Assembly: GCA_964351525.1 (NCBI GenBank)
Contig: CAYGOD010000002.1
Span: 230,327 to 294,326 of the forward strand
Source: an uncultured Bdellovibrionales bacterium
Lineage (GTDB): Bacteria; Pseudomonadota; Alphaproteobacteria; Micavibrionales; GCA-2720935
Direction: 5' to 3'
DNA: 64,000 nucleotides
The notes under the pieces are model-generated. The model did not search any database. It saw only the letters and a program-made list of their open reading frames with translations, and had not been told where the DNA came from. A program made the position numbers and the translations under genes. This document shows positions 1 through 11,442 of the stretch, piece by piece; positions within the stretch are counted from its first letter, which is position 1; every line of letters begins with the position of its first letter.

Positions 1-598
1 CGGCGCGTATATTAACAGCTTTTTGTGCAATGTTTTTAAGGGGGGTTGTGTCACCGCTTGCTTCCATTTCATCAAGTAAGCCTTGCCAATTCTCGGCATA
101 CGCCATGATTTCTGGATCATTAATAATGGCCTGTACATATTTTTCATTGACCTCAATCCACTTTAATTGCATCGCGGGGGGGAGATCAATGGCGTTATAT
201 AAAGCCGTTTTTAAGATATCGGGCAAGATTATATTCTCTGCGCTTAGGCGTTTGGTAATGCGCAATTTATCAAGATTGGTTATGCTATTAAAACCGCCAT
301 TTTCTTGTAATAAATAGAGATAATTTACCAATGTGTTACGATTGCCGGATTCGGCCATATGTTGAATATAATAACTCGCACACGATTGTTCATCGCTTAT
401 GGCCGCGGGTACATTGTCTAACGCCCATGATCCGGGAACCGCAATGCGTTCACTAGTCGTTGAGGGCATAACAGTATTGTTGCCTGATATAGGCTCGATA
501 ATGATACGTGTTTCCCCAGTCTGGGCTAGCGCATTCGTCGATAAACCCAAAAGACCGAGTGATAATGCTGATTTTAGGAATGTTTTTAATAAATTCAT
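1..598 (-). CDS. Secreted hypothetical protein, 3' end outside the window (partial)
   Basis: Hand translation of the minus strand from ATG at 598..596 is open down to position 2. No tta/cta/tca occurs in that frame, and an in-frame stop lies upstream at 650..652. The N-terminus MNLLKTFLKSALSLGLLGLSTNALAQ looks like a Sec signal peptide. It is absent from the ORF track because it runs off the edge. The plus-strand ORFs 30..317 and 399..605 are its shadows. Confidence 0.5.
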   Translation of the reverse strand, partial: MNLLKTFLKSALSLGLLGLSTNALAQTGETRIIIEPISGNNTVMPSTTSERIAVPGSWALDNVPAAISDEQSCASYYIQHMAESGNRNTLVNYLYLLQENGGFNSITNLDKLRITKRLSAENIILPDILKTALYNAIDLPPAMQLKWIEVNEKYVQAIINDPEIMAYAENWQGLLDEMEASGDTTPLKNIAQKAVNIRA

Positions 599-692
599 AA
601 CGTGATTATATAATACTTTACATAAAATGTAAATCACAAGCTTTTGCCATTAAGTTTTTGGTAAGACTTATTTAGTAGGAAAGGGCTGTTCT

Positions 693-1802
693 CTATGTGG
701 GGATAGGGCAGTTAATACCGCCAGATTTTTTAACTTTTTTTCTATAAGAGTTTGATTCTGCGATTGCCGTTAGAAACGCTTCTTTATTTTCCTGATATTG
801 CTTTTGGTAAGAGGTCGGATTATTAAAAGATAATTCAATTTGTTTAGCTGTTGCCCAAGCAACCGTTTCAATAGGATTGCTACGATAAGTCTTGCTTGTC
901 GCGTTCTTGTAATAGAACTTGGTCCCGTTTAGTTGAAAGATTGATGCTAAATAAGCGTGTTCAATATTCTGACTATTTGCTGATGTCTCGACCTCTAACT
1001 CTTTAAAGATATTTTGTACAAAGTGATCCATTTCGTGAGCAATTAAATTAGTGAGCTTGTGAGGATCATTTATTTTGTGATCTGGCTGTCCAACGTTGAT
1101 TTTGATATGACCGTTTTTATGTGATCCATTAATTATTCCTGTTTTTTCTTTAACAGCAGGATCATTATAAAAACTATGTGTTGGCATCTTGTTGAGACCA
1201 AATGCTTCAGCACGAATTTCTATAAGCCGTACGACATATTGTTTATGTGCTTTAGAAAGGTGGGTGTTTTCTTTTCCTACCCCAGTTATTGTGATGGTCT
1301 TTTCGTTCCATGATTTCGACAATTCTTTAAGCTGTTTATCTGTTGATACTGCGTTTATATAAGCATCGTTTCTTTCAAGCCACCAAAGTGCGATTTCTGG
1401 GGAAAGATTTACACCAGAGTAAAATTTATAGGCAATATCATTGTCAAAATTTAGACGGTTTTCAGAAATTGTCTCAAAGAGCGTTGCCTCAAACGATAGG
1501 GGAAGGCGCTCATAATCCTCGGCTGAAAGTCCCATAAACCAAGGGATAAAAGATCCGACAGCAACATTGTAATTGTGGGGGTTTGTGTCATGTCTAGTTT
1601 TTTTCATCGCGTTTCTGTGATGGTTTAGCGTCGTTAAATAATTTGAGGTAAAACAAACATCATCGTCATTTGTCATGCTATAGGCGTTTTGATTAATCCA
1701 ATCAGCGGAGATGTTGGGTTCTTTGACATGACAGCCTGAAACCGCAAAGCCGCCGGCGATTAGAAAAGATGTGATAAATTTACGCATAATATTATTATGC
1801 AT
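693..1802 (-). CDS. Putative lipoprotein with HExxH zinc-metalloprotease-like motif
   Basis: The N-terminus FITSFLIAGGFAVSGC has a lipobox-like VSGC. LIAHEMDHFVQ contains HExxH. AAGGA lies just upstream of the ATG. I recognise no family. Confidence 0.5.
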   Translation of the reverse strand: MHNNIMRKFITSFLIAGGFAVSGCHVKEPNISADWINQNAYSMTNDDDVCFTSNYLTTLNHHRNAMKKTRHDTNPHNYNVAVGSFIPWFMGLSAEDYERLPLSFEATLFETISENRLNFDNDIAYKFYSGVNLSPEIALWWLERNDAYINAVSTDKQLKELSKSWNEKTITITGVGKENTHLSKAHKQYVVRLIEIRAEAFGLNKMPTHSFYNDPAVKEKTGIINGSHKNGHIKINVGQPDHKINDPHKLTNLIAHEMDHFVQNIFKELEVETSANSQNIEHAYLASIFQLNGTKFYYKNATSKTYRSNPIETVAWATAKQIELSFNNPTSYQKQYQENKEAFLTAIAESNSYRKKVKKSGGINCPIPT

Positions 1803-1886
1803 AATGTCCTTTTGTGGGCAAGTTAAAATCTTAGAATATTTAAAAAACGCAACATTATTTCTATTTTCTAAAATTTACCATTCGCG

Positions 1887-2798
1887 TTATTTTTTAACGG
1901 GGCGTGGTTTTATCGGTTCTTCGGATGTTTTGAGGCGCTCAAGGAGGTCACGAGAGACAACAGTATCTTTTGTGATTTGCCCTTCTGGAAGCAGGCCTAA
2001 ACGACTTGCAAGATCTTGATAGTTGGTGATGTCACGATTATGATCTCTACCAAAATCTTTTTCATCCAAGACACCATTTTCTTTTAAGGGCCATAAGCGA
2101 CAGTTATTTGGCGAGAGTTCATCCGTCAAAATCATAAAGCTTTCATCTTCATAATAAAGGCGTCCAAATTCAAGGCGTACATCAACCAATTTGAAGCCGA
2201 TCCCCAAGAAAAGTCCACTTAAAAAGTCATTGACGCGTAGCGCCATCATGTAAATATCTTCAATCTCATCTTGGGTTGCCCAGCCAAAGGCGATTATGTG
2301 TTCATCGCTGATTATTGGATATTGACGCTTTTCATTTTTCAGCTGAAATTCAACGATTGATCGCGGCATTTGTGATCCCTCATCAATGCCTAGGCGTTCT
2401 GAAATATCCTTCGCGGCTAAGTTACGCACGACAATTTCAAAGGGCGGCGTATCTGTATCCCATACTAATTGCTCACGCATATTCATGACTTTAATGAAAT
2501 GTGTCGGCACACCAATCTCATCCAATTGGGTCATTAAATAAGCTGATATACGATTATTTAAAACACCCTTGCCAAAGATCAGGTCGGTATTTTTTGCGTC
2601 TACTGGCGTCGTGCCACCAATAGAGGTGACGTTATTGGGGGTTTTTGTGGATACGGGCTTTTCTTTAACGTCTTTTTTCTTATCAAAAATCGTAAAGGGA
2701 CGCATTGTGTCTTTGAAATGCTGGATTAATAATCCGTCTTCTGGACCTTCGAATAATGTCTTGGTGTGACCGTCATAAATTGTTTTGCGATTAATCAT
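1887..2798 (-). CDS. purC: Phosphoribosylaminoimidazole-succinocarboxamide (SAICAR) synthase
   Basis: GKGVLNNRISAYLMTQLDEIGVPTHFIKVMNMREQLV, EIVVRNLAAKDISERLGIDEG, RVNDFLSGLFLGIGFKLVDVRLEFG and LTDELSPNNCRLW match my memory of alphaproteobacterial PurC. It carries an extra Lys-rich insertion near the N-terminus and a C-terminal tail. Confidence 0.9.
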   Translation of the reverse strand: MINRKTIYDGHTKTLFEGPEDGLLIQHFKDTMRPFTIFDKKKDVKEKPVSTKTPNNVTSIGGTTPVDAKNTDLIFGKGVLNNRISAYLMTQLDEIGVPTHFIKVMNMREQLVWDTDTPPFEIVVRNLAAKDISERLGIDEGSQMPRSIVEFQLKNEKRQYPIISDEHIIAFGWATQDEIEDIYMMALRVNDFLSGLFLGIGFKLVDVRLEFGRLYYEDESFMILTDELSPNNCRLWPLKENGVLDEKDFGRDHNRDITNYQDLASRLGLLPEGQITKDTVVSRDLLERLKTSEEPIKPRPVKK

Positions 2799-2886
2799 GG
2801 CTTTATAAATTTCGTCATCTTGGTTTTTCTTTAATCATATTACTCTATTATCTATAACGTGTTTATGATTATTTAAAAAGGAAACA

Positions 2887-3201
2887 ATGATGTCTGACGT
2901 AAAGCAAAATAAATATCACCATGATCAAAATATGCAATTCAAGGTACAGGTAAAGGCCTCTAAGCTATTTGGCCTATGGGCGGCAGGTATCATGGGGTTT
3001 GATGGTGCCGAAGCTGAGAGTTATGCGTCAGAAGTTGTTGAGGCCGATTTCGAAGAACCAGGTTTTGAAGATGTCTTGCGTAAAGTTTCAAAAGATTTTA
3101 AAAAATCTGGTGCTAGGGTTGATGATAAACAAATGCGCCGCGTGCTAGATGAAAAGATCACAACGGCAAAACATGCCGTTATGGACGCGGAGAAATTGTA
3201 A
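2887..3201 (+). CDS. DUF1476 protein (F1-ATPase inhibitor zeta-subunit family)
   Basis: It is 104 aa. LFGLWAAGIMGFDGAEAESYASEVVEADFEEPGFEDVLRKVSKDF resembles the Paracoccus zeta subunit / DUF1476 pattern (LLGEWAA..., SDFDEPGDEDV) as I recall it. Confidence 0.65.
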   Translation: MMSDVKQNKYHHDQNMQFKVQVKASKLFGLWAAGIMGFDGAEAESYASEVVEADFEEPGFEDVLRKVSKDFKKSGARVDDKQMRRVLDEKITTAKHAVMDAEKL

Positions 3202-3218
3202 AAATAGCGCGATACGTC

Positions 3219-3905
3219 TTAATAATATAGATGTATTTCTGGTGGCAGGTCATTGTCTGAGAGGGCGGGGAATTTATTGTAAAAATCTGGCAATAAACGA
3301 AAATCCCACCACTCTTCGGGTAGCGGCATAATATTTAGTCCTAAATCCGTGGCGGCTGTTAAGAATGCATTTTCTAAAGCGTGACGATTATCTAGTATCT
3401 CTTGTTTAAATGATGTGACGTTGCGTGCGGCTAAATTCGGTTCACCATCGGGTGCCAAATAGTCAAAGAGCGTCCCCATGTCGCGTTTTTCCTGTGTTGT
3501 ATCATCGAACAATTCAACATCAACTGCCATTGCCCTTGGGTGTCCACCACCACCGGGCGTTGAGATAAGTTGATTTGGTTCTTCCAACCAATGCGGGTTA
3601 GCCCTAACCAGATCACAATTTTGCATGGCTGTTTGGGCATCAATTGTGCGCAAACAATCTTTAATGACTAAAGAATAATTATGCGTTTGCTTTAATAGTG
3701 TGGCCGCACCCAATGTTATGTGTGCTAAATCTGTATCACACCAACAGCGCGCCTGTTTTTTATAAAAGGCTGTTTTGAAAACATTATCGGGATGGTCTTT
3801 ATCGCTATAGGCGAGATCAATTTTTATCGCATGAGATTTTTCAAAATCGTTCAAACAGACCAAACGATTGATTAAATCTTGCTTACTGTGGGATCGGGCA
3901 CTCAC
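3219..3905 (-). CDS. D-Ala-D-Ala dipeptidase-like zinc peptidase (VanX/DdpX, M15D-like)
   Basis: GGGGHPRAMAVDVEL gives an H-x6-D zinc motif. PLPEEWWDFRL corresponds to the E-W-W-H catalytic/ligand motif, but with Asp in place of His. The start lies 4 nt after the stop of the Mur ligase gene. Confidence 0.55.
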   Translation of the reverse strand: MSARSHSKQDLINRLVCLNDFEKSHAIKIDLAYSDKDHPDNVFKTAFYKKQARCWCDTDLAHITLGAATLLKQTHNYSLVIKDCLRTIDAQTAMQNCDLVRANPHWLEEPNQLISTPGGGGHPRAMAVDVELFDDTTQEKRDMGTLFDYLAPDGEPNLAARNVTSFKQEILDNRHALENAFLTAATDLGLNIMPLPEEWWDFRLLPDFYNKFPALSDNDLPPEIHLYY

Positions 3906-3909
3906 GTAC

Positions 3910-5244
3910 TTATTGTCCAGTGGCTATTTTTTTGAACAGTGCGCTGCGCTCTTTGTAATTATTAAAGGGTGGGCCAGATGGGCCCGCAGGGGCAAAAAGT
4001 ATGACTTCATTTTCGCGCGCTTTTTCTTCCGCACCCCTAACGGCTTCTTCGAAGCTATCGTAAAAACTGGCAAATTTTGGTTTTAAAGCCATTAAATTTT
4101 CACCGCACGGATCAAAACAATGAATATGAATTTCTTCTTCGTCGTTTAAAATAGAAACGAAATCAGTAAAATCTTGACCGTTATCTTTACCACCGATTAG
4201 GAGATGAATATTATTCTCAGGGAATTGATCCAGCGCCATCAAGGATGCCTCTGGAATTGTTGCCAATGAATCATCTATCCAAAACTTCCCATCACGTTCA
4301 CTGACCACTTCCAGACGATGTGCCAAGGTTTCCCAATCTTGTAAATAATCGCCTAAATTATCCAATAAGGCCGCCATATTGACCCACTCGGTTTGCTGTA
4401 AAATGGTCAAGACCTGTAACAGGTTGCGCTGTAAAGGGTCGCGAAAAAAGCGCTCGCCAATATCACTCATTTTTACTGCTAGAATATCCATGATGCGCAA
4501 GAAACCCTGACTGATATAAACATTATCCTCGACGAAATGCGTATTCTCATATCCTTCTGGCATATATTGATTCAGATCTTTCCAGATAAGCGCTTGGCAC
4601 GTATTATCGCGCTCAAAGGGACTGAACTTGGTGGCGATATATGCATCTGTGCCGCCGTGCCAATCTGTGTGGGCACGGTAAATACTGGTCACCGCATGAT
4701 AGGGGGCGTTATAGCGCATATCTGATAATTGATAAGATGATGTTTCAACAACAGCTACGGAATTTTCACCAAATAATGTGGTAAAGGGGCTTTCACCAAT
4801 ATTGCCCATCGCATAGGCATCAAGGCCGGCCTTGTTCAAAATATGTGTTAATAAAGAAACGGTCGTGCTCTTGCCTTTTGACCCCGTAATGGTAATTGTG
4901 CGTTTTGGTGCAAAATTCTCTAACCAGAAACTTAATGGTGTTGTATGGGGAATGTTTTTTGCACGTGCAGCAACCAATGCTTCATGCTCTAACGTAATGC
5001 CTGGGGATCTTAAAACGATAGCTTTTTTGGCATCTGGTACAGTGTTGATCTGTGTTAGAAAATCAGCTTCGTTTAAATATGTAATATTTTTTTGATTCTC
5101 AAATTGCTCGAATAAAGATGTTTTTGAATCTGTCACATAAAGATGACCATCTAGTTCCGCATTGGCTAAAAAATTGACACATGATGTGCCCTCAAGCCCA
5201 AGTCCGAGAATAAAAAAATCAGTGTTTTGATAGACGTCAATCAT
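3910..5244 (-). CDS. Mur ligase family protein, MurD-like (possible MurD2-type UDP-MurNAc-L-Ala:Glu ligase)
   Basis: The N-terminal Rossmann-like FFILGLGLEGTSCVNFL, the P-loop ITGSKGKSTTVSLLTHIL, the C-terminal DDSLATIPEA and LLIGGKDNGQDF follow the MurD layout. It is not in a dcw context. It overlaps the upstream gene by ATGA. Confidence 0.75.
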   Translation of the reverse strand: MIDVYQNTDFFILGLGLEGTSCVNFLANAELDGHLYVTDSKTSLFEQFENQKNITYLNEADFLTQINTVPDAKKAIVLRSPGITLEHEALVAARAKNIPHTTPLSFWLENFAPKRTITITGSKGKSTTVSLLTHILNKAGLDAYAMGNIGESPFTTLFGENSVAVVETSSYQLSDMRYNAPYHAVTSIYRAHTDWHGGTDAYIATKFSPFERDNTCQALIWKDLNQYMPEGYENTHFVEDNVYISQGFLRIMDILAVKMSDIGERFFRDPLQRNLLQVLTILQQTEWVNMAALLDNLGDYLQDWETLAHRLEVVSERDGKFWIDDSLATIPEASLMALDQFPENNIHLLIGGKDNGQDFTDFVSILNDEEEIHIHCFDPCGENLMALKPKFASFYDSFEEAVRGAEEKARENEVILFAPAGPSGPPFNNYKERSALFKKIATGQ

Positions 5245-6653
5245 GGATACTCTGCTAATTCGTGTTCAACTACGGTCATTATCCGTTGTGGTAATGACGT
5301 TTTTATATCGTTGTTAGTGTCGTTTTTTTTCGCCTGTAACGCAATTAAATTCGTCATAAAATCATCGGTCCATATGTTTTTTTCAAGGCGTTTTTGTTCA
5401 TAAAGAGTAATCAAAGAGGCTCTAGATTCGGTAATCGTACCAACACATTCCCATGGTTTTTGGTCGCTCAACCCTAAAATTTCTGTGTAATAAGGGTGTA
5501 ATTCAGAGCCATTAACAAAGTCACCGCCAAAAATTGCTATGGCTTTTTCTTTTGACAAATAGGGTGATAAAATCAGCGCCGTAAACGCACATTTTGGACA
5601 GTTACCGCACCATGGTTGGTGTGTTGCGCTTTTATTATCATGGGTAAAGTTCTTATTACAGCTTAAAAAATAGGGATGATGTTCTGTTTGTTGCGCGAAT
5701 AAATACCCAATTTTTTGTTCGTCAAGGGGGCGCAGAATTGAAAAATAACTGGGATAGTCGCCATCTAAGTTTTGTAAAAAGACGTTTATGTCGTTTTCGC
5801 ATGCAGCACTTTTACTATATTGGTGATTAACGGGCATAATATCGCCCGTTTCTGTTTTATGCATCATTGTTGCCTCATCCGCAGATTTCTCATTGGCAAA
5901 AATAACGGCTTGTTTGTTTGTAAGACTGGCAAATACGAGCAAAATAAAACTATTAATCGCCGTAACGGGGACGTGACCATTGTGGCCTTGTTGTAGCGCT
6001 TTTGATTTTGGATCTAACAGTGATTTATCAAGGCGTCTCTGGATGAATGTCACCGCATTATCGCTGGCGGATTGAATGGTTTTTTCGATGGCTGGCGACA
6101 ATGAAACACTGGCACGTATAGTGTTAGAGCACCCTGCTTTTTCAATTAAGGATTGTGCGACATACGAATCTTTACCGCCACCAAAGGCAACGATTGCAGA
6201 GTGTGGCATCAGCGGTGTTGCCATCACTCGTGTTTCTGTGTCTGTTGTTTTTTGAGGAAAAGCCCAGTCTTGCTGGTAGGGATAGGGAAGGTCGGCACGT
6301 ATGAAGAATTCACCTAAACCTTCTTGATATAGGGATTGAATTAATATGCGAGCCGTATTTTTTTGAAAAATAAGATGGTCACATTTAAGGTTTTGGGCGG
6401 CATTTAATTTATAATAACTAACGCCGATAATTGCATGGAGCATATCGATTAACGGTTTTTGTTTTTGTAACGCCTCGGTTGTTGTCGGTAAAGGCAATGT
6501 GATAGTTTCGATGAATTCCCCAAAGGCCGAACAACGATAGTGAAAAGATAGCTTATTTGCTGCCTCGTCAAAGACCCAATCTATTATATGAAAGCTTGCT
6601 GTCATTGTGAAATCGCGTATAGTTAAAGGGTTAGTTGCTTGACTTTTATGCAC
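5241..6653 (-). CDS. PP-loop ATP pyrophosphatase-like protein, possible MurL-type UDP-MurNAc-L-Ala-L-Glu epimerase
   Basis: AFGGGKDSYVAQSL is an SGGxDS-type PP-loop. WCGNCPKCAFTAL is a Cys cluster of the kind seen at the C-terminus of PP-loop enzymes. It is translationally coupled (ATGA overlap) to the MurD-like gene. The start is uncertain: GTG at 6653 or ATG at 6605, neither with a clear SD. Confidence 0.45.
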   Translation of the reverse strand: MHKSQATNPLTIRDFTMTASFHIIDWVFDEAANKLSFHYRCSAFGEFIETITLPLPTTTEALQKQKPLIDMLHAIIGVSYYKLNAAQNLKCDHLIFQKNTARILIQSLYQEGLGEFFIRADLPYPYQQDWAFPQKTTDTETRVMATPLMPHSAIVAFGGGKDSYVAQSLIEKAGCSNTIRASVSLSPAIEKTIQSASDNAVTFIQRRLDKSLLDPKSKALQQGHNGHVPVTAINSFILLVFASLTNKQAVIFANEKSADEATMMHKTETGDIMPVNHQYSKSAACENDINVFLQNLDGDYPSYFSILRPLDEQKIGYLFAQQTEHHPYFLSCNKNFTHDNKSATHQPWCGNCPKCAFTALILSPYLSKEKAIAIFGGDFVNGSELHPYYTEILGLSDQKPWECVGTITESRASLITLYEQKRLEKNIWTDDFMTNLIALQAKKNDTNNDIKTSLPQRIMTVVEHELAEYP

Positions 6654-6706
6654 GAAAACACACTATAAATCAAAGTAAATAGCACGATATTGAAAGAGAC
6701 TAAAAT

Positions 6707-6940
6707 ATGCCAATTGCCGAAACAGATTTAAAAGCCATGCTGGTTGAGGGTTTTCCAGATGCCGATATTATCCTGACAGATTTGGCAGGAGATGGCGATC
6801 ATTATAAGGCCGTTATAAAAAGTGATGCTTTTGAAGGAAAAAACCGTGTTCAACAACACCAAATGGTCTATAAATCATTACATGGAAAAATGGGCGGTGA
6901 ATTACATGCCCTTGCCCTTGAAACAGGCACAAAATCGTAA
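6707..6940 (+). CDS. bolA: BolA family protein
   Basis: It is 77 aa, with HYKAVIKSDAFEGKNRVQQHQMVYKSL and ELHALAL typical of BolA/IbaG. It lies directly upstream of a monothiol glutaredoxin, its usual partner. Confidence 0.85.
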   Translation: MPIAETDLKAMLVEGFPDADIILTDLAGDGDHYKAVIKSDAFEGKNRVQQHQMVYKSLHGKMGGELHALALETGTKS

Positions 6941-6977
6941 TAAATAAAGAATAATAAAAACAAGAAGGATCTTTATC

Positions 6978-7316
6978 ATGACAGAAATGACACCAATACA
7001 CGCCGACATTCAAAAAACCATCGACAGCAGTGATGTTGTCTTGTTTATGAAGGGCACAGATATTTTTCCACAATGTGGATTTTCCGCGGCCGTTGTACAG
7101 GTTTTAAACCATATGGAAGTAACATTTACATCTATCAATGTTTTGGAAGATGCTGAATTACGTCAAGGCATTAAAGAGTTTTCAAGCTGGCCAACAATCC
7201 CACAGCTTTACGTTAAGGGATCCTTTGTCGGCGGGTGTGACATTATTAAAGAAATGTACACAGAAGGTGAGTTACAGACATTATTCGCCGATCAAGACAT
7301 TCAACATGTTGCGTAA
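6978..7316 (+). CDS. grxD: Monothiol glutaredoxin (Grx4 family)
   Basis: The CGFS active site ([14 protein letters not shown]) and [19 protein letters not shown] are present. Confidence 0.9.
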
Positions 7317-7395
7317 GATTTTTTTTAAGATCTCGCATTTCTAATAAAATTAAAACATAATAAAGTCCTGATAATAACTTCAGAGCTTTATTTAT

Positions 7396-8196
7396 ATGAT
7401 GGATATTTTTTTACAATTTTTGCCCTTTGTAGGGCTCGGCTTCGCGATGGGGTTCATTACCTCTGTTTCTGGCGGTGGTGGCGTTTTTGGTGTACCTGCA
7501 TTCCTTATGTTGGGCTTGCCGCCCATGCATGCATTGGCTTTGAACCGTATCTCTGATATTGGTTGTTTGATTGGTGCGCTACCGAACTTTATGAAGGCGC
7601 GATTAATTGAAAAGAAACAATCTCTTCCTTTGCTTGTTTGTCTTTTGCTCGGTGCTGTACTGGGCGTTAATGTCATGGCTAATTTATTAGAAGAAGTACA
7701 AAAATATATTATTTTTAGCGGCGCCGTTTTGGCTATTTTATTAATGATTTTTAGTGATTTGCGCGGTTCTACAATAGTTGAAAATAAAGCATCTTTTTTA
7801 CAATTATCAACCAAAACTAAAACCGCGTGCGGTTTTCTGTTTATATTTTTGTGTGGTATATGGGACGGCGTTTTGGCGATGGCTGGCGGTACAATGATTT
7901 TATTGGTTCTACATATTTTCTTTGATATGAATCTAAAACAAGCGCGTGGTACAGGGCTGTTTTTGGCTGTGCCCGAAACCCTGTTTACAACAGTCTTTCT
8001 ACTTTATTATATCTATAATGATGCAACCAATTTCGCTGACTTTACCTCATATGGCTTTATTATCTTCTTATCGTCTTTGGTTGGTGCAATCATTGGCTCA
8101 AAAATGATGATTAAATATGATGTGCGCTTTATCCGCGGTTTTATATGTCTTGTTGCCGTTTTGATTATTGGTCGGCTTGTTTTCTTGCCGTTATAA
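7396..8196 (+). CDS. TSUP (TauE/SafE) family anion exporter
   Basis: It is polytopic and hydrophobic. The Gly-rich first helix SGGGGVFGVPAFLMLGLPP and a second half with GGTMILLVL are characteristic of the TauE/SafE duplication. Confidence 0.7.
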   Translation: MMDIFLQFLPFVGLGFAMGFITSVSGGGGVFGVPAFLMLGLPPMHALALNRISDIGCLIGALPNFMKARLIEKKQSLPLLVCLLLGAVLGVNVMANLLEEVQKYIIFSGAVLAILLMIFSDLRGSTIVENKASFLQLSTKTKTACGFLFIFLCGIWDGVLAMAGGTMILLVLHIFFDMNLKQARGTGLFLAVPETLFTTVFLLYYIYNDATNFADFTSYGFIIFLSSLVGAIIGSKMMIKYDVRFIRGFICLVAVLIIGRLVFLPL

Positions 8197-8538
8197 GAGA
8201 TCTATTTCCAATAAAAACGCCTCTAATTCTTCTTGGCTTTCTTGTATGATGAGGGCATGTGCAATCTCTGTTTCATAAATTTCTTGGTTTATTGTTTCAT
8301 TCAAAAATGCGGCTATTTCGCGATCAGCCACTTGTGGCCCATAGAAAAATGAATAGAGACTAAGGACGACCAAGGTTATGCCCATTAAAGGCACAGCACG
8401 GCGCATCATCGTGAAAATAAACGGTGTTTCAGATGTTTTACGATCACTTATTTTGGTCATAATTTTCTCATTTAAATTTTGTGACGGTTTTGGGGTATCA
8501 TATCCGTCAAGCATCGTGTTTAATGTTTTATCATCCAT
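8191..8538 (-). CDS. Putative single-pass anti-sigma factor
   Basis: It is 115 aa with one TM segment (AVPLMGITLVVLSLYSFFY). It lies 15 nt downstream of the ECF sigma gene on the same strand. The call is positional only. Confidence 0.4.
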   Translation of the reverse strand: MDDKTLNTMLDGYDTPKPSQNLNEKIMTKISDRKTSETPFIFTMMRRAVPLMGITLVVLSLYSFFYGPQVADREIAAFLNETINQEIYETEIAHALIIQESQEELEAFLLEIDLL

Positions 8539-8553
8539 TGTCTTTACCTTTTT

Positions 8554-9081
8554 CTACTTTTGTAAGAAATCTTTCATTGTCTGGCGCGCTTTTGATAGAT
8601 GTCGTTCAATTGCTTTTGGCGTTGTTTTTAGGCTTTTTGCGCATTCTTGATTTGTTAAACCATGATAATAGGTCAAAATCAAAATGGTGCGCTGTTTTTC
8701 ATTCAAAACGGCCAAGCCATTACGTACCATATTTTTATGCTCAAGGGCTTTGTCGTTTGTCGGTGCAGACGTTGTTTCTATCATCTCTTTTTGATGGTCG
8801 GCGCGGCGCTTCATAGCGCGGCCAATATCACACCATTTATTGTAACAAAGCGTGTAAAGCCAGCTTGTGAATTTTGCTTTTTCGGGATCATAGTTTTTTG
8901 CTTTTTCCCAGAGTGTTAAAGCAACATCTTGGGTTAAATCCTCGGCATCATTTTGATTGGCACCCATACGATAAAAATATTTAAACATGATGGGGATAAT
9001 ATACGTCAATAATTTAGAAAAAGCAGCCCGATCACCATCGGCAACATGATTGATAAGCGATATGTAATCGGGCTGTTTCAT
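8554..9081 (-). CDS. ECF-type RNA polymerase sigma-70 factor
   Basis: Region 2 is DAEDLTQDVALTLWEKAKNYDPEKAKFTSWLYTLCYN. Region 4 HTH is LNEKQRTILILTYYHGLTNQECAKSLKTTPKAIERHLSKARQTMK. Confidence 0.85.
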   Translation of the reverse strand: MKQPDYISLINHVADGDRAAFSKLLTYIIPIMFKYFYRMGANQNDAEDLTQDVALTLWEKAKNYDPEKAKFTSWLYTLCYNKWCDIGRAMKRRADHQKEMIETTSAPTNDKALEHKNMVRNGLAVLNEKQRTILILTYYHGLTNQECAKSLKTTPKAIERHLSKARQTMKDFLQK

Positions 9082-9103
9082 TACTTTAATTAATTCTCTT
9101 GTA

Positions 9104-9550
9104 TTATTCGGCGTCTTTAAGTTCTTGACGTTTTTGCTTATGTTCTTTTTTGAACTCTTTGCGCATTTCTTTCATTTTTGCACGGCGCTCTTCAGGTGAT
9201 AGACCTTCTAATTCAGTTTTCATTTTTGCACGACGTTCTTCCATGCGCTCAAGACGTTCTGCGCGTTCTTCTGCAGTCATGCTTTGGAATTTCTCGCGTT
9301 TTTTATCAATGCGTGCTTTTTTTTCATCACTGAGGGCGTTGTATCGCTCCGTTGCTTTTTCGCTCTCATGCGTCCACCAGGGGCCTTTTTTAACATTATG
9401 TCTTTTATCTTTTATGGTTTCAGAAACCGTGGAGGGTGATGTTGTGATGTCTGTATCGTCGGCCATGGTTGGGCTGATTGATAGACCAAGAACGATGGCA
9501 CCAGCCATTAAAAATGATGTTGTTTTTTGTGTGAATGTGTAGGTCATTAT
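9104..9550 (-). CDS. Secreted, highly charged helical protein (first gene of the ECF operon)
   Basis: I prefer the ATG at 9550 (AAGGA 8 nt upstream) over the track start at 9598. The signal peptide is MTYTFTQKTTSFLMAGAIVLGLSISPTMA, followed by K/E/R-rich repeats (AEERAERLERMEERRAKMK, SPEERRAKMKEMRKEFKKE). Confidence 0.5.
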   Translation of the reverse strand: MMTYTFTQKTTSFLMAGAIVLGLSISPTMADDTDITTSPSTVSETIKDKRHNVKKGPWWTHESEKATERYNALSDEKKARIDKKREKFQSMTAEERAERLERMEERRAKMKTELEGLSPEERRAKMKEMRKEFKKEHKQKRQELKDAE

Positions 9551-9647
9551 AATATCCTTTTTAGGGTTAATAGATAAATAAACAAAATGTCTATTCATAC
9601 TATAATACGCTTGGGCGATAAAAATCCCCCCTTTTTAATTTTAAGAC

Positions 9648-9679
9648 AAAAAAAACCCGCTATAAAAGCGGGTTTTTTA
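9648..9679 (-). terminator. Rho-independent terminator (usable in both directions) after the 582-aa gene
   Basis: An A-run, stem AACCCGC (9654..9660), loop TATAAAA, stem GCGGGTT (9668..9674), then a T-run. On the minus strand the hairpin is followed by 8 T. It lies 15 nt past the stop at 9694. Confidence 0.75.
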
Positions 9680-9693
9680 TAAATTATGTTTTC

Positions 9694-11442
9694 TTAATAA
9701 GCGTTCCAGCCACGGTTGAAGGCACGTCCCATGCTTTGTGGGTTGCTTCTTTTTGTTCTTCGCTTAGTTGATTGTGCCATTTGATATGATTTACGCAACT
9801 TTTCAACATGTCTATCCATGGCACTAAAGGCTGCATCATCAAGCCTCAGGCTGTCTGCCAGAACGTGATTTGCATTCTGAGTTCCCTCCATAAAGCGGGA
9901 CATTAGCACGCCCTCTTGTTCTGTCTCACATAATTGATATGCTTTTGAGATCAGAGTAGGCGTGAATTTGGCGCCCATAATAAGCGGGACATCTGTTGGA
10001 TCAAAATCATACTCGTCTTCAATCGCTTTTTGCTCTGCTTTGGCAATGCGTTGTTTCTGCATGATGGCACGGGCCAGAACAGTGTCGGACATGGTCTTCC
10101 ATACATGTTCTTGTTTAATGCCACGCTCTGTTGATTGGTCTAAAAATTTCTCGGATTCTTGCAAATAAACCTGCACTGCACGGCATATTGATAGGGCTGC
10201 TGATGTTGTTTTCTCAACCTGTGACAAATCAACGTGAACAGTATCTAATTCTTCTATTATATCATCTTGACGTAGCAGGAGGCCGACTCTTTGGACAAGA
10301 AGATTTGCTTGAAAGGCGCCTTGTTCTAGATTTTTTAATGGTTCATAATAATTAGTCATGACTAGGTTTAAGAACTCTTGCATGTCACTGACAATTTGAA
10401 GGCGTAAATCTTTTTGCTGTGCAATATTTGCACTATTCATGAAATAGGGATCTTTAGCCATGATAACAGAACAGAGTTCATCATTTTTTGATAAAACGGT
10501 CGCCGTTTCCTTAAGAACAGCTGCATATGATGCATTCATTTTCTTTTTGGTGGCTTCATAGTCTTGCATGAAGGCTGACTGTAACGTGAGTAAGTCTTTG
10601 TCGGTTCTTAGCTCTTCTCTTCTGAGCGCACGTTCTTCGCGTTTTTTACAGGTTCTGTCATAGGCTTGAATTTTCCCAAGGATGTCATTCTTTTTGACAC
10701 GGACATTTGCTTTGCGACTCGTTGCTTTTTTAACAAATCTACTAAATTCTGTTGCACCAACACCGCCTTTACGCGCTAGATAACTTGTATATGTTTCATC
10801 ACCCAGTTTTTCGCCGCCAATATATATAATCATATCACCAACATGGGTGGAATAATCATAATGATATGATCCTTGGCGCATACGAGACATTTCTTTGTCT
10901 GCTTCGCGATATATATCATCCTCAAAATCATAGTTGCTGGTGGTCATGCGGAGTGTTTCATCTAGTGCGCTTTGTGAACCGTGTTCATTAAGAATTCTTT
11001 GAACATCGTCCTTCATCTCATCCAGTTTCGCTTGTGCCTCATCATGTGTTTTTAGAAGATCGGCGGCACCATCTTTATGACCGGTATATGCGTTTTTGTA
11101 GGTACGAATAAATTTAACAAGTGTTTCTGTATCAGTGTCGCCACGGCGCTTTTGACGCGTAACAATATTTTTTAAGCCTTGCTTAATGGCGTCTACCGAA
11201 CCAATTTCTTTAATGGCTGTTGCTTTCTCATGAAAAGCGCTTAACGCCGCCGTTGCGTCAATAAGCGCACCTTTTTCGATATCTTCTGCATCGGCAACCA
11301 TAGAGGTTAATTGACCTATAGTATTTGATACTTCGTATAATGTATGGCGGGTCAGTTCTGGTGCTGCCGCTTCTTCAAATGGTTGTAGAACAGTGGCAGT
11401 TCCTGTCATTGGTGTGTCGTTTTGTGGTTCTGGCGTGCTCAT
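9694..11442 (-). CDS. Hypothetical protein, 582 aa, predicted largely helical, no signal peptide
   Basis: A long ORF with protein-like composition, its own terminator and its own upstream intergenic region. I recognise no motif. Confidence 0.6.
   Translation of the reverse strand: MSTPEPQNDTPMTGTATVLQPFEEAAAPELTRHTLYEVSNTIGQLTSMVADAEDIEKGALIDATAALSAFHEKATAIKEIGSVDAIKQGLKNIVTRQKRRGDTDTETLVKFIRTYKNAYTGHKDGAADLLKTHDEAQAKLDEMKDDVQRILNEHGSQSALDETLRMTTSNYDFEDDIYREADKEMSRMRQGSYHYDYSTHVGDMIIYIGGEKLGDETYTSYLARKGGVGATEFSRFVKKATSRKANVRVKKNDILGKIQAYDRTCKKREERALRREELRTDKDLLTLQSAFMQDYEATKKKMNASYAAVLKETATVLSKNDELCSVIMAKDPYFMNSANIAQQKDLRLQIVSDMQEFLNLVMTNYYEPLKNLEQGAFQANLLVQRVGLLLRQDDIIEELDTVHVDLSQVEKTTSAALSICRAVQVYLQESEKFLDQSTERGIKQEHVWKTMSDTVLARAIMQKQRIAKAEQKAIEDEYDFDPTDVPLIMGAKFTPTLISKAYQLCETEQEGVLMSRFMEGTQNANHVLADSLRLDDAAFSAMDRHVEKLRKSYQMAQSTKRRTKRSNPQSMGRAFNRGWNAY

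Follow-up and report, generated by a model that had tools for sequence, protein, structure and literature searches.

A predicted murL-murD2 route to D-glutamate in an uncultured alphaproteobacterium and its lineage-specific VanX-fold peptidase neighbor

The window analyzed here is a stretch of 64,000 nucleotides (nt) from an uncultured Bdellovibrionales bacterium of the alphaproteobacterial order Micavibrionales (assembly GCA_964351525.1, contig CAYGOD010000002.1, positions 230,327 to 294,326 of the forward strand). The genome to which it belongs comprises 1.95 Mb on 29 contigs with a GC content of 39% and a completeness of 99.99%. Close to the beginning of the window, three adjacent minus-strand genes encode a MurL-like protein of 470 amino acids (aa), a MurD2-type Mur ligase of 444 aa and an M15D metallopeptidase with a VanX fold of 228 aa (Table 1), and it is this locus and its probable role in the supply of D-glutamate (D-Glu) for peptidoglycan that we describe. 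The initial annotation had recognized three densely packed genes for a PP-loop protein with a cysteine cluster, a MurD-like ligase and an M15-type dipeptidase-like protein, located outside a dcw (division and cell wall) cluster, and each element of this description is borne out. Open reading frames (ORFs) and junctions are exactly as stated: read directly from the sequence, the stop codon of murL and the start codon of the ligase gene share 4 nt (...CC ATGA TTG...), and 4 nt lie between the ligase stop and the GTG start of the peptidase gene (...CAA TAA gtac GTG...). The dcw cluster of the genome (murE-murF-mraY-ftsW-murG-murC-murB-ftsQ-ftsA-ftsZ) is located on the same contig at a distance of about 140 kb; it harbors no murD, and mraY and ftsW are spaced by merely 8 nt.

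The homology of the 470-aa protein to MurL is extensive. It matches the MurL model NF041275 over positions 7-413 of 447 (E-value 2.9e-80, 270 bits), and its precomputed Pfam domains are MurL_N (PF26299) and MurL_epimerase_C (PF26298), which is likewise the case for the ortholog at locus L171 from the same family. In an alignment of 25 homologs all 53 invariant columns are retained, among them G158-G-G-K161 of the GGGKDS PP-loop (residues 158-163) as well as C349, C352 and C355 of the CGNCPKC motif (residues 349-355). Sequence searches of the PDB with this protein, as with the M15 protein, returned nothing useful, whereas fold searches were informative. The AlphaFold2 (AF2) model, with a predicted local distance difference test score (pLDDT) of 89.7, has QatC and QueC as its closest matches, and next in similarity are LarE, TtuA, MnmA and the ATP-pyrophosphatase subunit of GMP synthetase. 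QueC and QatC are the best structural matches to the core and share with MurL an SGGxDS-type PP-loop, a CxxCxxC zinc motif and, by prediction, adenylating chemistry; they differ in substrate and reaction and in the absence of the additional N- and C-terminal domains of MurL, and since the identity is only 10-17% the relationship is detectable by fold alone. A PP-loop adenylating fold combined with a CxxCxxC zinc motif would fit the published chemistry of MurL, which consumes ATP and releases AMP (PMC8788868, PMC5808125).

The start of murL is probably the ATG at 6605 rather than the called GTG at 6653, because residues 1-16 are disordered or of low confidence in the structure model and have no counterpart in the homologs, both of which start only at around residue 17-20 of the called ORF. 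A strong promoter-like site (TTCACA-17-TATAAT, 11/12 positions) at 6611-6583 overlaps this candidate ATG.

The 444-aa protein contains the domains MurD-like_N, Mur_ligase_M and Mur_ligase_C and exceeds the cut-off of the MurD model TIGR01087 (268 bits versus 212), compared with about 374 bits for canonical MurDs of the order. It is the single murD match above this cut-off in the whole genome. With MurC as the root of a MurD tree, the MurL-linked ligases are all united in one clade apart from the canonical MurDs (support 98/96), and the ligase of the window is nested inside it, in a subclade with Parvularculaceae and Woodsholea that obtains a support of 100/100. The MurD2s of order-mates from families f3 and f4, unlike the ligase of the window's family f1, group with those of Xanthomonadales and Marinicella, which suggests at least two independent horizontal acquisitions of the murL-murD2 cassette within the order.

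The gene content of the genome leaves little room for another source of D-Glu. Neither murI (TIGR00067) nor the D-amino-acid aminotransferase gene dat (TIGR01121) has a match in the genome, a class IV aminotransferase is missing altogether, and a second or canonical murD is absent as well. The only member of the Asp/Glu racemase superfamily (PF01177) in the genome is a TIGR00035/CuyB-like "amino acid racemase". We rejected this gene as a hidden MurI, given that it has no match to TIGR00067 and that similar weak matches are present in MurI-positive relatives; for the latter reason it does not track the need for D-Glu. The distribution of both routes across the order is complementary. MurL occurs in 9 of 41 order genomes, none of which has a true MurI (matches of about 25 bits or none), while MurI is found at E ≤ 1e-36 in 27 of the 32 MurL-negative genomes; absence in relatives means not found in the genomes searched, several of which are incomplete metagenome-assembled genomes (MAGs). 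The initial annotation had interpreted the gene pair as murL-murD2 replacing glutamate racemase, and had named murI and a murD in the dcw cluster as the genes to look for. Neither was found, the similarity to MurL is evident, and the ligase falls outside the canonical MurD clade in a genome with no detectable murI; together with the QueC-like fold, the lack of dat and of a second murD, and the complementarity of murL and murI, this upholds the interpretation.

A direct example of such a replacement is found in genus g12. In genome G013 a slot between penicillin-binding protein 1a (PBP1a) and mlaF-mlaE is occupied by the M15 peptidase gene and murI, in the order PBP1a, M15, murI, mlaF, mlaE (L059, G013:C29:50500-65500, 4970-10466), and in G019 the same PBP1a and mlaF-mlaE enclose murL-murD2 (L047, G019:C19:1-11000, 548-7095). 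The flanking genes of the two genomes are 66-85% identical. The in-situ replacement of M15-murI by murL-murD2 within this genus is thereby demonstrated, and the slot represents a clean natural case of the displacement of one D-Glu route by another. Five order genomes (G017, G028, G037, G038, G040) contain neither murI nor murL, and the alanine racemase model TIGR00492 found no match in any of the three f6 genomes or in several genomes of f3 and f4. There may be other routes to D-alanine (D-Ala) and D-Glu in the order.

The MurD2/MurL pathway itself was described in 2017. MurD2 (XOO_1320) and MurL (XOO_1319) were identified in Xanthomonas oryzae, and orthologs from Micromonospora and Salinispora have been assayed (Feng et al. 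2017; PMC8788868, PMC5808125). Besides Xanthomonadales, the published carriers are a small number of Alphaproteobacteria (Devosia, Pelagibacterium, Parvularcula) and several rare actinomycetes (PMC8788868). NCBIfam and Pfam meanwhile provide curated models for the route, and with at least 596 MurL loci in species-representative genomes, many of them Patescibacteria, MurL-MurD2 pairs are far more widespread than the genera given in the 2021 review. Patescibacteria with both genes include Uhrbacteria, Saccharibacteria, Peribacteria and Roizmanbacteria, among others, and the pair is also present in Marinicella (loci L080-L141). For a comparison of gene neighborhoods we used 80 MurL loci from named genomes outside the window's family, namely Parvularcula, Aquisalinus, Woodsholea, Marinicella and many Patescibacteria. 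A murD-type gene adjoins murL at 77 of them, nearly always immediately downstream. A Xanthomonadales-type genome, whose MurL scores 823 bits, has a lone MurD directly downstream of murL.

The locus of the window conforms to the X. oryzae system in the adjacent order of murL and murD, in the location of its only murD outside the dcw cluster, in the lack of murI and dat, in the PP-loop and cysteine-motif architecture of MurL, and in a ligase with a non-lysine residue at the position of K319 and a proline at that of A414 (E. coli numbering). It differs in that its MurL scores only 270 bits on the model for Xanthomonadales and shares 30-43% identity with other MurLs, in that its ligase has Ala and Asn instead of Glu197 and Arg358, in the presence of a third co-directional gene, for the M15 peptidase, and in its host, an uncultured alphaproteobacterium with a small genome. 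The nearest relatives of both proteins are those of Parvularculaceae (Parvularcula, Aquisalinus) and Woodsholea, with the same order of murL and murD and a MurL identity of 37-43%; however, there is no M15 gene within 6 kb of murL in these bacteria, and their ligases keep Arg at position 348. Since the closest relatives of the pair belong to Parvularculaceae and not to order-mates, murL-murD2 probably reached this lineage by horizontal transfer. The locus is thus mostly an ordinary case, in which a known system occurs in an additional alphaproteobacterial lineage, and the core finding is the addition of one more lineage to an already described pathway. Two features are lineage-specific twists, namely, the appended peptidase gene and the Ala/Asn pocket of the ligase.

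The 228-aa protein belongs to the Peptidase_M15 family (PF01427, 46 bits versus a cut-off of 27), but remains below the equivalog cut-offs of DdpX (NF007557, 53 bits versus 176) and VanX (NF033115, 18.5 bits versus 320). Its AF2 model (pLDDT 96.9) has VanX as the best fold match in the PDB (1r44, E-value 2e-9, TM score 0.72), followed with partial coverage by the L-Ala-D-Glu-cleaving LAS peptidases LysECD7, ChiX and RB49. An alignment of homologs documents that R86, H122 and D129 are invariant and that E198-W-W-D201 is nearly so. The His-Asp-His zinc triad of VanX is incomplete, with H122 and D129 present and Asp201 in place of the third histidine. A catalytic Glu and a transition-state Arg are present in the form of E198 and R86, which we take, by motif position, to be the equivalents of E181 and R71 of VanX. 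In a profile search of 1.84 billion representative sequences, "EWWD" occurs in 64 of the top 80 matches, usually together with "HPRxMAxD", and classical "HN[RY]GxAxD…EWWH" proteins dominate just lower in the match list. The peptidase of the window is accordingly a member of an "HPRxMAxD...EWWDFR" subfamily, present as a single copy in the genome, and for the members of this subfamily no name beyond "M15 family metallopeptidase" or "D-alanyl-D-alanine dipeptidase" was found. The N-terminus is non-hydrophobic and inspection reveals no signal peptide, so that the protein is probably cytoplasmic. With VanX (1r44) and DdpX of E. coli it shares the fold, the predicted cytoplasmic location, a length of about 200-230 aa, the H-x6-D zinc motif, the catalytic Glu and the Arg. 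It deviates from them by EWWD instead of EWWH, by HPRxMAxD instead of HN[RY]GxAxD, by an identity of 20% to VanX and by its position below both equivalogs. We read the EWWD subfamily most simply as a housekeeping dipeptidase for dipeptides that contain D-amino acids, with D-Ala-D-Ala as the simplest candidate substrate.

The linkage of this peptidase with murL-murD2 is a property of a single family. Within f1, the order murL-murD-M15, followed by zeta and purC, recurs in genome G002, where the genes overlap by 11 nt and 4 nt, and at locus L171 with gaps of 24 nt and 20 nt; in G001 the contig ends after murL-murD. Because the arrangement is conserved at a protein identity of only 36-46% between the window and G002, it appears to be under some constraint. 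The synteny that the initial annotation had proposed to examine is hence conserved in G002 and L171, but absent at all 80 MurL loci elsewhere, none of which has an M15 homolog within 6 kb. The annotation had correctly treated the dipeptidase as an addition to the pathway, of which it is no published part, and had supposed that the peptidase might link D-Ala-D-Ala turnover or precursor editing to the MurL route. This supposition is not sustained by the comparison. In addition to the 80 loci, M15 and murL are unlinked in the MurL-positive order genomes G005, G011, G023 and G033, and M15 was not found in the likewise MurL-positive G019 and G027. Conversely, 125 of the 161 genomes of the order contain M15, which makes it a near-core gene; it occurs in a single copy, and most of its carriers have no MurL. 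The peptidase is a lineage-specific neighbor and not a general component of the pathway.

One might conclude from this distribution that the adjacency is an accident of the site where the cassette landed, without regulatory or functional meaning, and that the M15 gene may be served by a promoter of its own. The confinement of the linkage to one small family would agree with such an accident, as would the foreign phylogeny of the cassette next to a peptidase that is native to the order. Yet gene order and tight spacing have been preserved (4 nt between ligase and peptidase gene in the window, 20 nt at L171 and an overlap of 4 nt in G002) despite low sequence identity, which argues for selection, and elsewhere the subfamily is repeatedly a neighbor of genes for peptidoglycan D-amino acids. 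We therefore regard a mere accident as quite unlikely.

The neighborhoods of M15 in other families illustrate this tendency. In f5, M15 is convergent with the alanine racemase gene alr, and mlaE, mlaF and a gene for a class A PBP come next (example L056, G018:C1, 6001-7898); by our own comparison of two coordinate tables, alr is an immediate neighbor of M15, at no more than 600 nt, in 24 genomes and lies at a distance of 1.3-3.2 kb in 19 others, about 43 in total. In f6, M15 adjoins murI. This is the sole family with such an adjacency, and in all other genomes that have both genes they are separated by over 100 kb or assigned to separate contigs. In f7 and f8 the neighbor is a peptide ATP-binding cassette (ABC) transporter of the Dpp/Ddp type (SBP_bac_5/BPD_transp_1), and in f4 and part of f5 it is ribF-ileS-lspA. 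The proximity to a Dpp/Ddp-type transporter or to alr in these relatives echoes the logic of the ddpXABCDF arrangement of E. coli. The statement that holds is therefore a weaker one: the EWWD subfamily is habitually found beside peptidoglycan D-amino-acid supply genes (alr, murI, murL-murD2). The argument that M15 is drawn to such genes was made post hoc, with the data already seen. A VanX-fold subfamily with a His-to-Asp change of a zinc ligand that is near-core in a whole alphaproteobacterial order, and that tracks alr, murI and murL-murD2, would point to an unstudied housekeeping function in the metabolism of D-amino-acid dipeptides.

The adjacencies in f1 and f6 probably arose independently. 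In the RpoB tree, from which the row of G023 (wrong ORF, very long branch) was ignored, f6 is grouped with f2, f4 and f5 (97/99), apart from f1. A single ancestral M15-murI pair with in-situ replacement of murI by murL-murD2 in f1 was rejected as a simple explanation because of this topology and because the flanks differ, with bolA-grx4 and zeta-purC in f1 and PBP1a and mlaFE in f6.

The same neighborhoods bear on the question of whether the peptidase is a true accessory of D-Glu provisioning, which would release or remove dipeptides with D-Glu or L-Glu, for example in L-Ala-D-Glu salvage, or edit mis-made precursors. Its proximity to a D-Glu supply gene in two non-sister families and three different arrangements is what one would expect of an accessory, and so is the replacement of M15 and murI as a unit in G019. 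The next-best structural matches, LysECD7, ChiX and RB49, are L-Ala-D-Glu peptidases, and the EWWD variant of the active site is indicative of a substrate different from the one of classical VanX. However, such a function is hard to reconcile with the lack of M15 at the MurL loci elsewhere, with its unlinked position or apparent absence in the six other MurL-positive order genomes named above, and with its separation from murI in all other genomes that have both. By far the commonest partner of M15 is alr, and a Ddp-like transporter recurs; both point to D-Ala-D-Ala. Since the argument from adjacency is moreover post hoc, we consider an accessory role in D-Glu supply unlikely.

The best explanation, which we hold to be likely, is that murL-murD2 is the D-Glu route of this genome and was acquired horizontally, and that M15 is a native dipeptidase which became linked to it in f1 without contributing a new step to the pathway. 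According to this explanation, the MurD2-type ligase would add L-glutamate (L-Glu) to the cell-wall precursor, and MurL would adenylate the terminal alpha-carboxylate, converting ATP to AMP, and epimerize the residue one way to D-Glu. With murI, dat and a canonical murD all missing, murL-murD2 would be the sole such route of the genome. The product of the third gene would be the native cytoplasmic VanX-fold dipeptidase of the order, whose most likely substrate is D-Ala-D-Ala or a comparable dipeptide with a D-amino acid. In f1 alone its gene presumably became co-transcribed with the incoming pair, a linkage that probably provides coordinated expression and no additional catalytic step. In this explanation, the genes present, their homology, folds, phylogeny and synteny are direct results, and the substrates, the co-transcription and the cause of the linkage are inferred.

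Several observations weigh against this explanation. The 270 bits of the MurL-like protein on NF041275 are below the curated equivalog cut-off of 700, which is a narrow one tailored to Xanthomonadales and is passed by only 6 of the 19 genomes with MurL among 401 sampled from the phylum. The TIGR00035-type racemase of the genome could in principle perform some D-Glu synthesis. The third zinc histidine of VanX and DdpX has no counterpart in the peptidase, which also scores less than the equivalog cut-offs of these two enzymes, so that the assigned substrate is a prediction. The occurrence of M15 beside D-Glu supply genes in the non-sister families f1 and f6 could reflect a closer functional tie. 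Finally, the ligase has Ala191 and Asn355 where MurD2 of X. oryzae has Glu197 and Arg358, a difference that went unnoticed in the initial annotation; as both published switch residues are replaced, the L-Glu specificity of the ligase is not assured.

The relevance of these two residues is known from mutagenesis. MurD2 of X. oryzae and MurD of E. coli differ at four positions (E197/D182, R358/K348, P433/A414 and F435/L416), the E197D/R358K double mutant of MurD2 is switched to D-Glu, and the K319T mutant of E. coli MurD accepts L-Glu (PMC8788868). We aligned 88 MurL-linked ligases with four canonical MurDs and compared them in E. coli numbering. At position 319, each of the 88 linked ligases has I, L or F, the four canonical enzymes invariably have K, and the window has L327. 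Position 414 is P in 78 of the linked ligases and A in the canonical ones (window P422), and position 348 is R in 85 of them and K in the canonical enzymes (window N355, in GGKDNGQ). At position 182, E in 72 and D in 14 of the linked ligases add up to an acidic residue in 86 of the 88, with D in the canonical MurDs, and the window has A191 (RAHTDWH). The ligase of L171, which is 82% identical, has the same Ala and Asn, so the pair is not a sequencing error. Among the 88 linked ligases this combination is found in the window and L171 only; within the family, the ligase of G002 keeps E and R, and that of G001 has T at position 182.

It is conceivable that the A191/N355 ligase no longer uses L-Glu, but takes D-Glu from the TIGR00035-type racemase, or another amino acid, and that the chemistry of the locus is unlike the Xanthomonas model. 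The exchange of both experimentally defined switch residues and its persistence at L171, the uniqueness of the combination, the long branch that leads to the window/L171 pair in the MurD tree and the asp_race-type racemase in the genome all speak in favor of altered specificity. On the other hand, a MurL with every invariant residue intact adjoins the ligase in both genomes, and this is sensible only with an L-configured product. The other MurD2 markers, non-Lys at 319 and Pro at 414, have been kept, no feature of canonical MurD has been regained, and weak matches to a similar racemase family are also found in MurI-positive relatives. A change of substrate is accordingly very unlikely in our view. 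Because of the intact neighboring MurL in the genomes of the window and L171, ligation of L-Glu followed by epimerization remains the likeliest chemistry, and a strictly functional assignment of the ligase to MurD2 is provisional. A natural MurD2 that has neither of the mutagenesis-defined L-Glu/D-Glu switch residues is a ready-made test of the switch model.

Both twists of the locus could also belong together, if f1 possessed a three-enzyme module in which the remodeled ligase pocket (Ala/Asn for Glu/Arg) is combined with the EWWD peptidase as a dedicated partner. We judge this improbable. If it were true, the peptidase of the module might cleave mis-made or surplus L-Ala-L-Glu or L-Ala-D-Glu, or balance the D-Ala-D-Ala and D-Glu branches, and the EWWD subfamily would have an unrecognized housekeeping function in the homeostasis of peptidoglycan D-amino acids and act on a substrate unlike that of VanX.

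The immediate surroundings of the three genes are summarized in Table 1. The murL gene and bolA-grx4 are divergent and separated by a gap of 53 nt. The gene pair bolA-grx4 is also present beside murL at L171, and in G001 and G002 grx4 takes the corresponding place next to murL. The gap harbors a candidate promoter in the direction of murL, but the underlying scan is no richer than shuffled sequence (17 sites versus 13.2 ± 3.7), which makes it weak evidence. At the opposite end, a terminator-like hairpin lies 36 nt past the M15 stop, in the 3'-terminal part of zeta, which is convergent with M15, and the pattern scan detected no minus-strand hairpin of comparable strength between the three genes.

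Table 1. Genes and sequence features of the murL-murD2-M15 locus and its flanks (positions within the window)
Feature	Position	Strand	Basis or remark
purC	1887-2798	-	flank, beyond zeta
ATPase-inhibitor zeta subunit gene, alphaproteobacterial	2887-3201	+	flank, convergent with M15 gene
Terminator-like hairpin	3159-3183	-	pattern scan; 10 pairs, then T-rich tail
M15D (VanX-fold) metallopeptidase gene	3219-3905	-	ORF list and family models; 228-aa product
murD2-type Mur ligase gene	3910-5244	-	ORF list and family models; 444-aa product
murL-like gene	5241-6653	-	ORF list and family models; 470-aa product
Candidate sigma-70-like promoter	6684-6713	-	consensus scan only; TTGGCA-18-TATCGT, 9/12 positions; in murL/bolA gap
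bolA	6707-6940	+	flank, diverges from murL
grx4 (monothiol glutaredoxin)	6978-7316	+	flank, downstream of bolA

A few observations concern the genome and its relatives at large. The contig L065 of a family-mate has been deposited as "MAG: Rickettsiales bacterium SP2989". Elsewhere in the genome of the window, a second MurF-like ligase of 591 aa scores higher on TIGR01143 (201 bits) than the "MurF" of the dcw cluster (135 bits; G000:C6:27000-41000, L172, 5022-8041). Its gene is convergent with the only Ddl gene of the genome, whose 415-aa product contains an insertion and is below the Ddl cut-off, and an alanine dehydrogenase gene adjoins. The D-Ala-D-Ala end of the pathway may thus be unusual in this genome as well. 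In G040, a second rpoB fragment (G040:C231:4184-5935) contains 15-16 in-frame TGA codons; it probably stems from contamination by DNA of an organism in which TGA is a sense codon, and this genome is rated as 6% contaminated.

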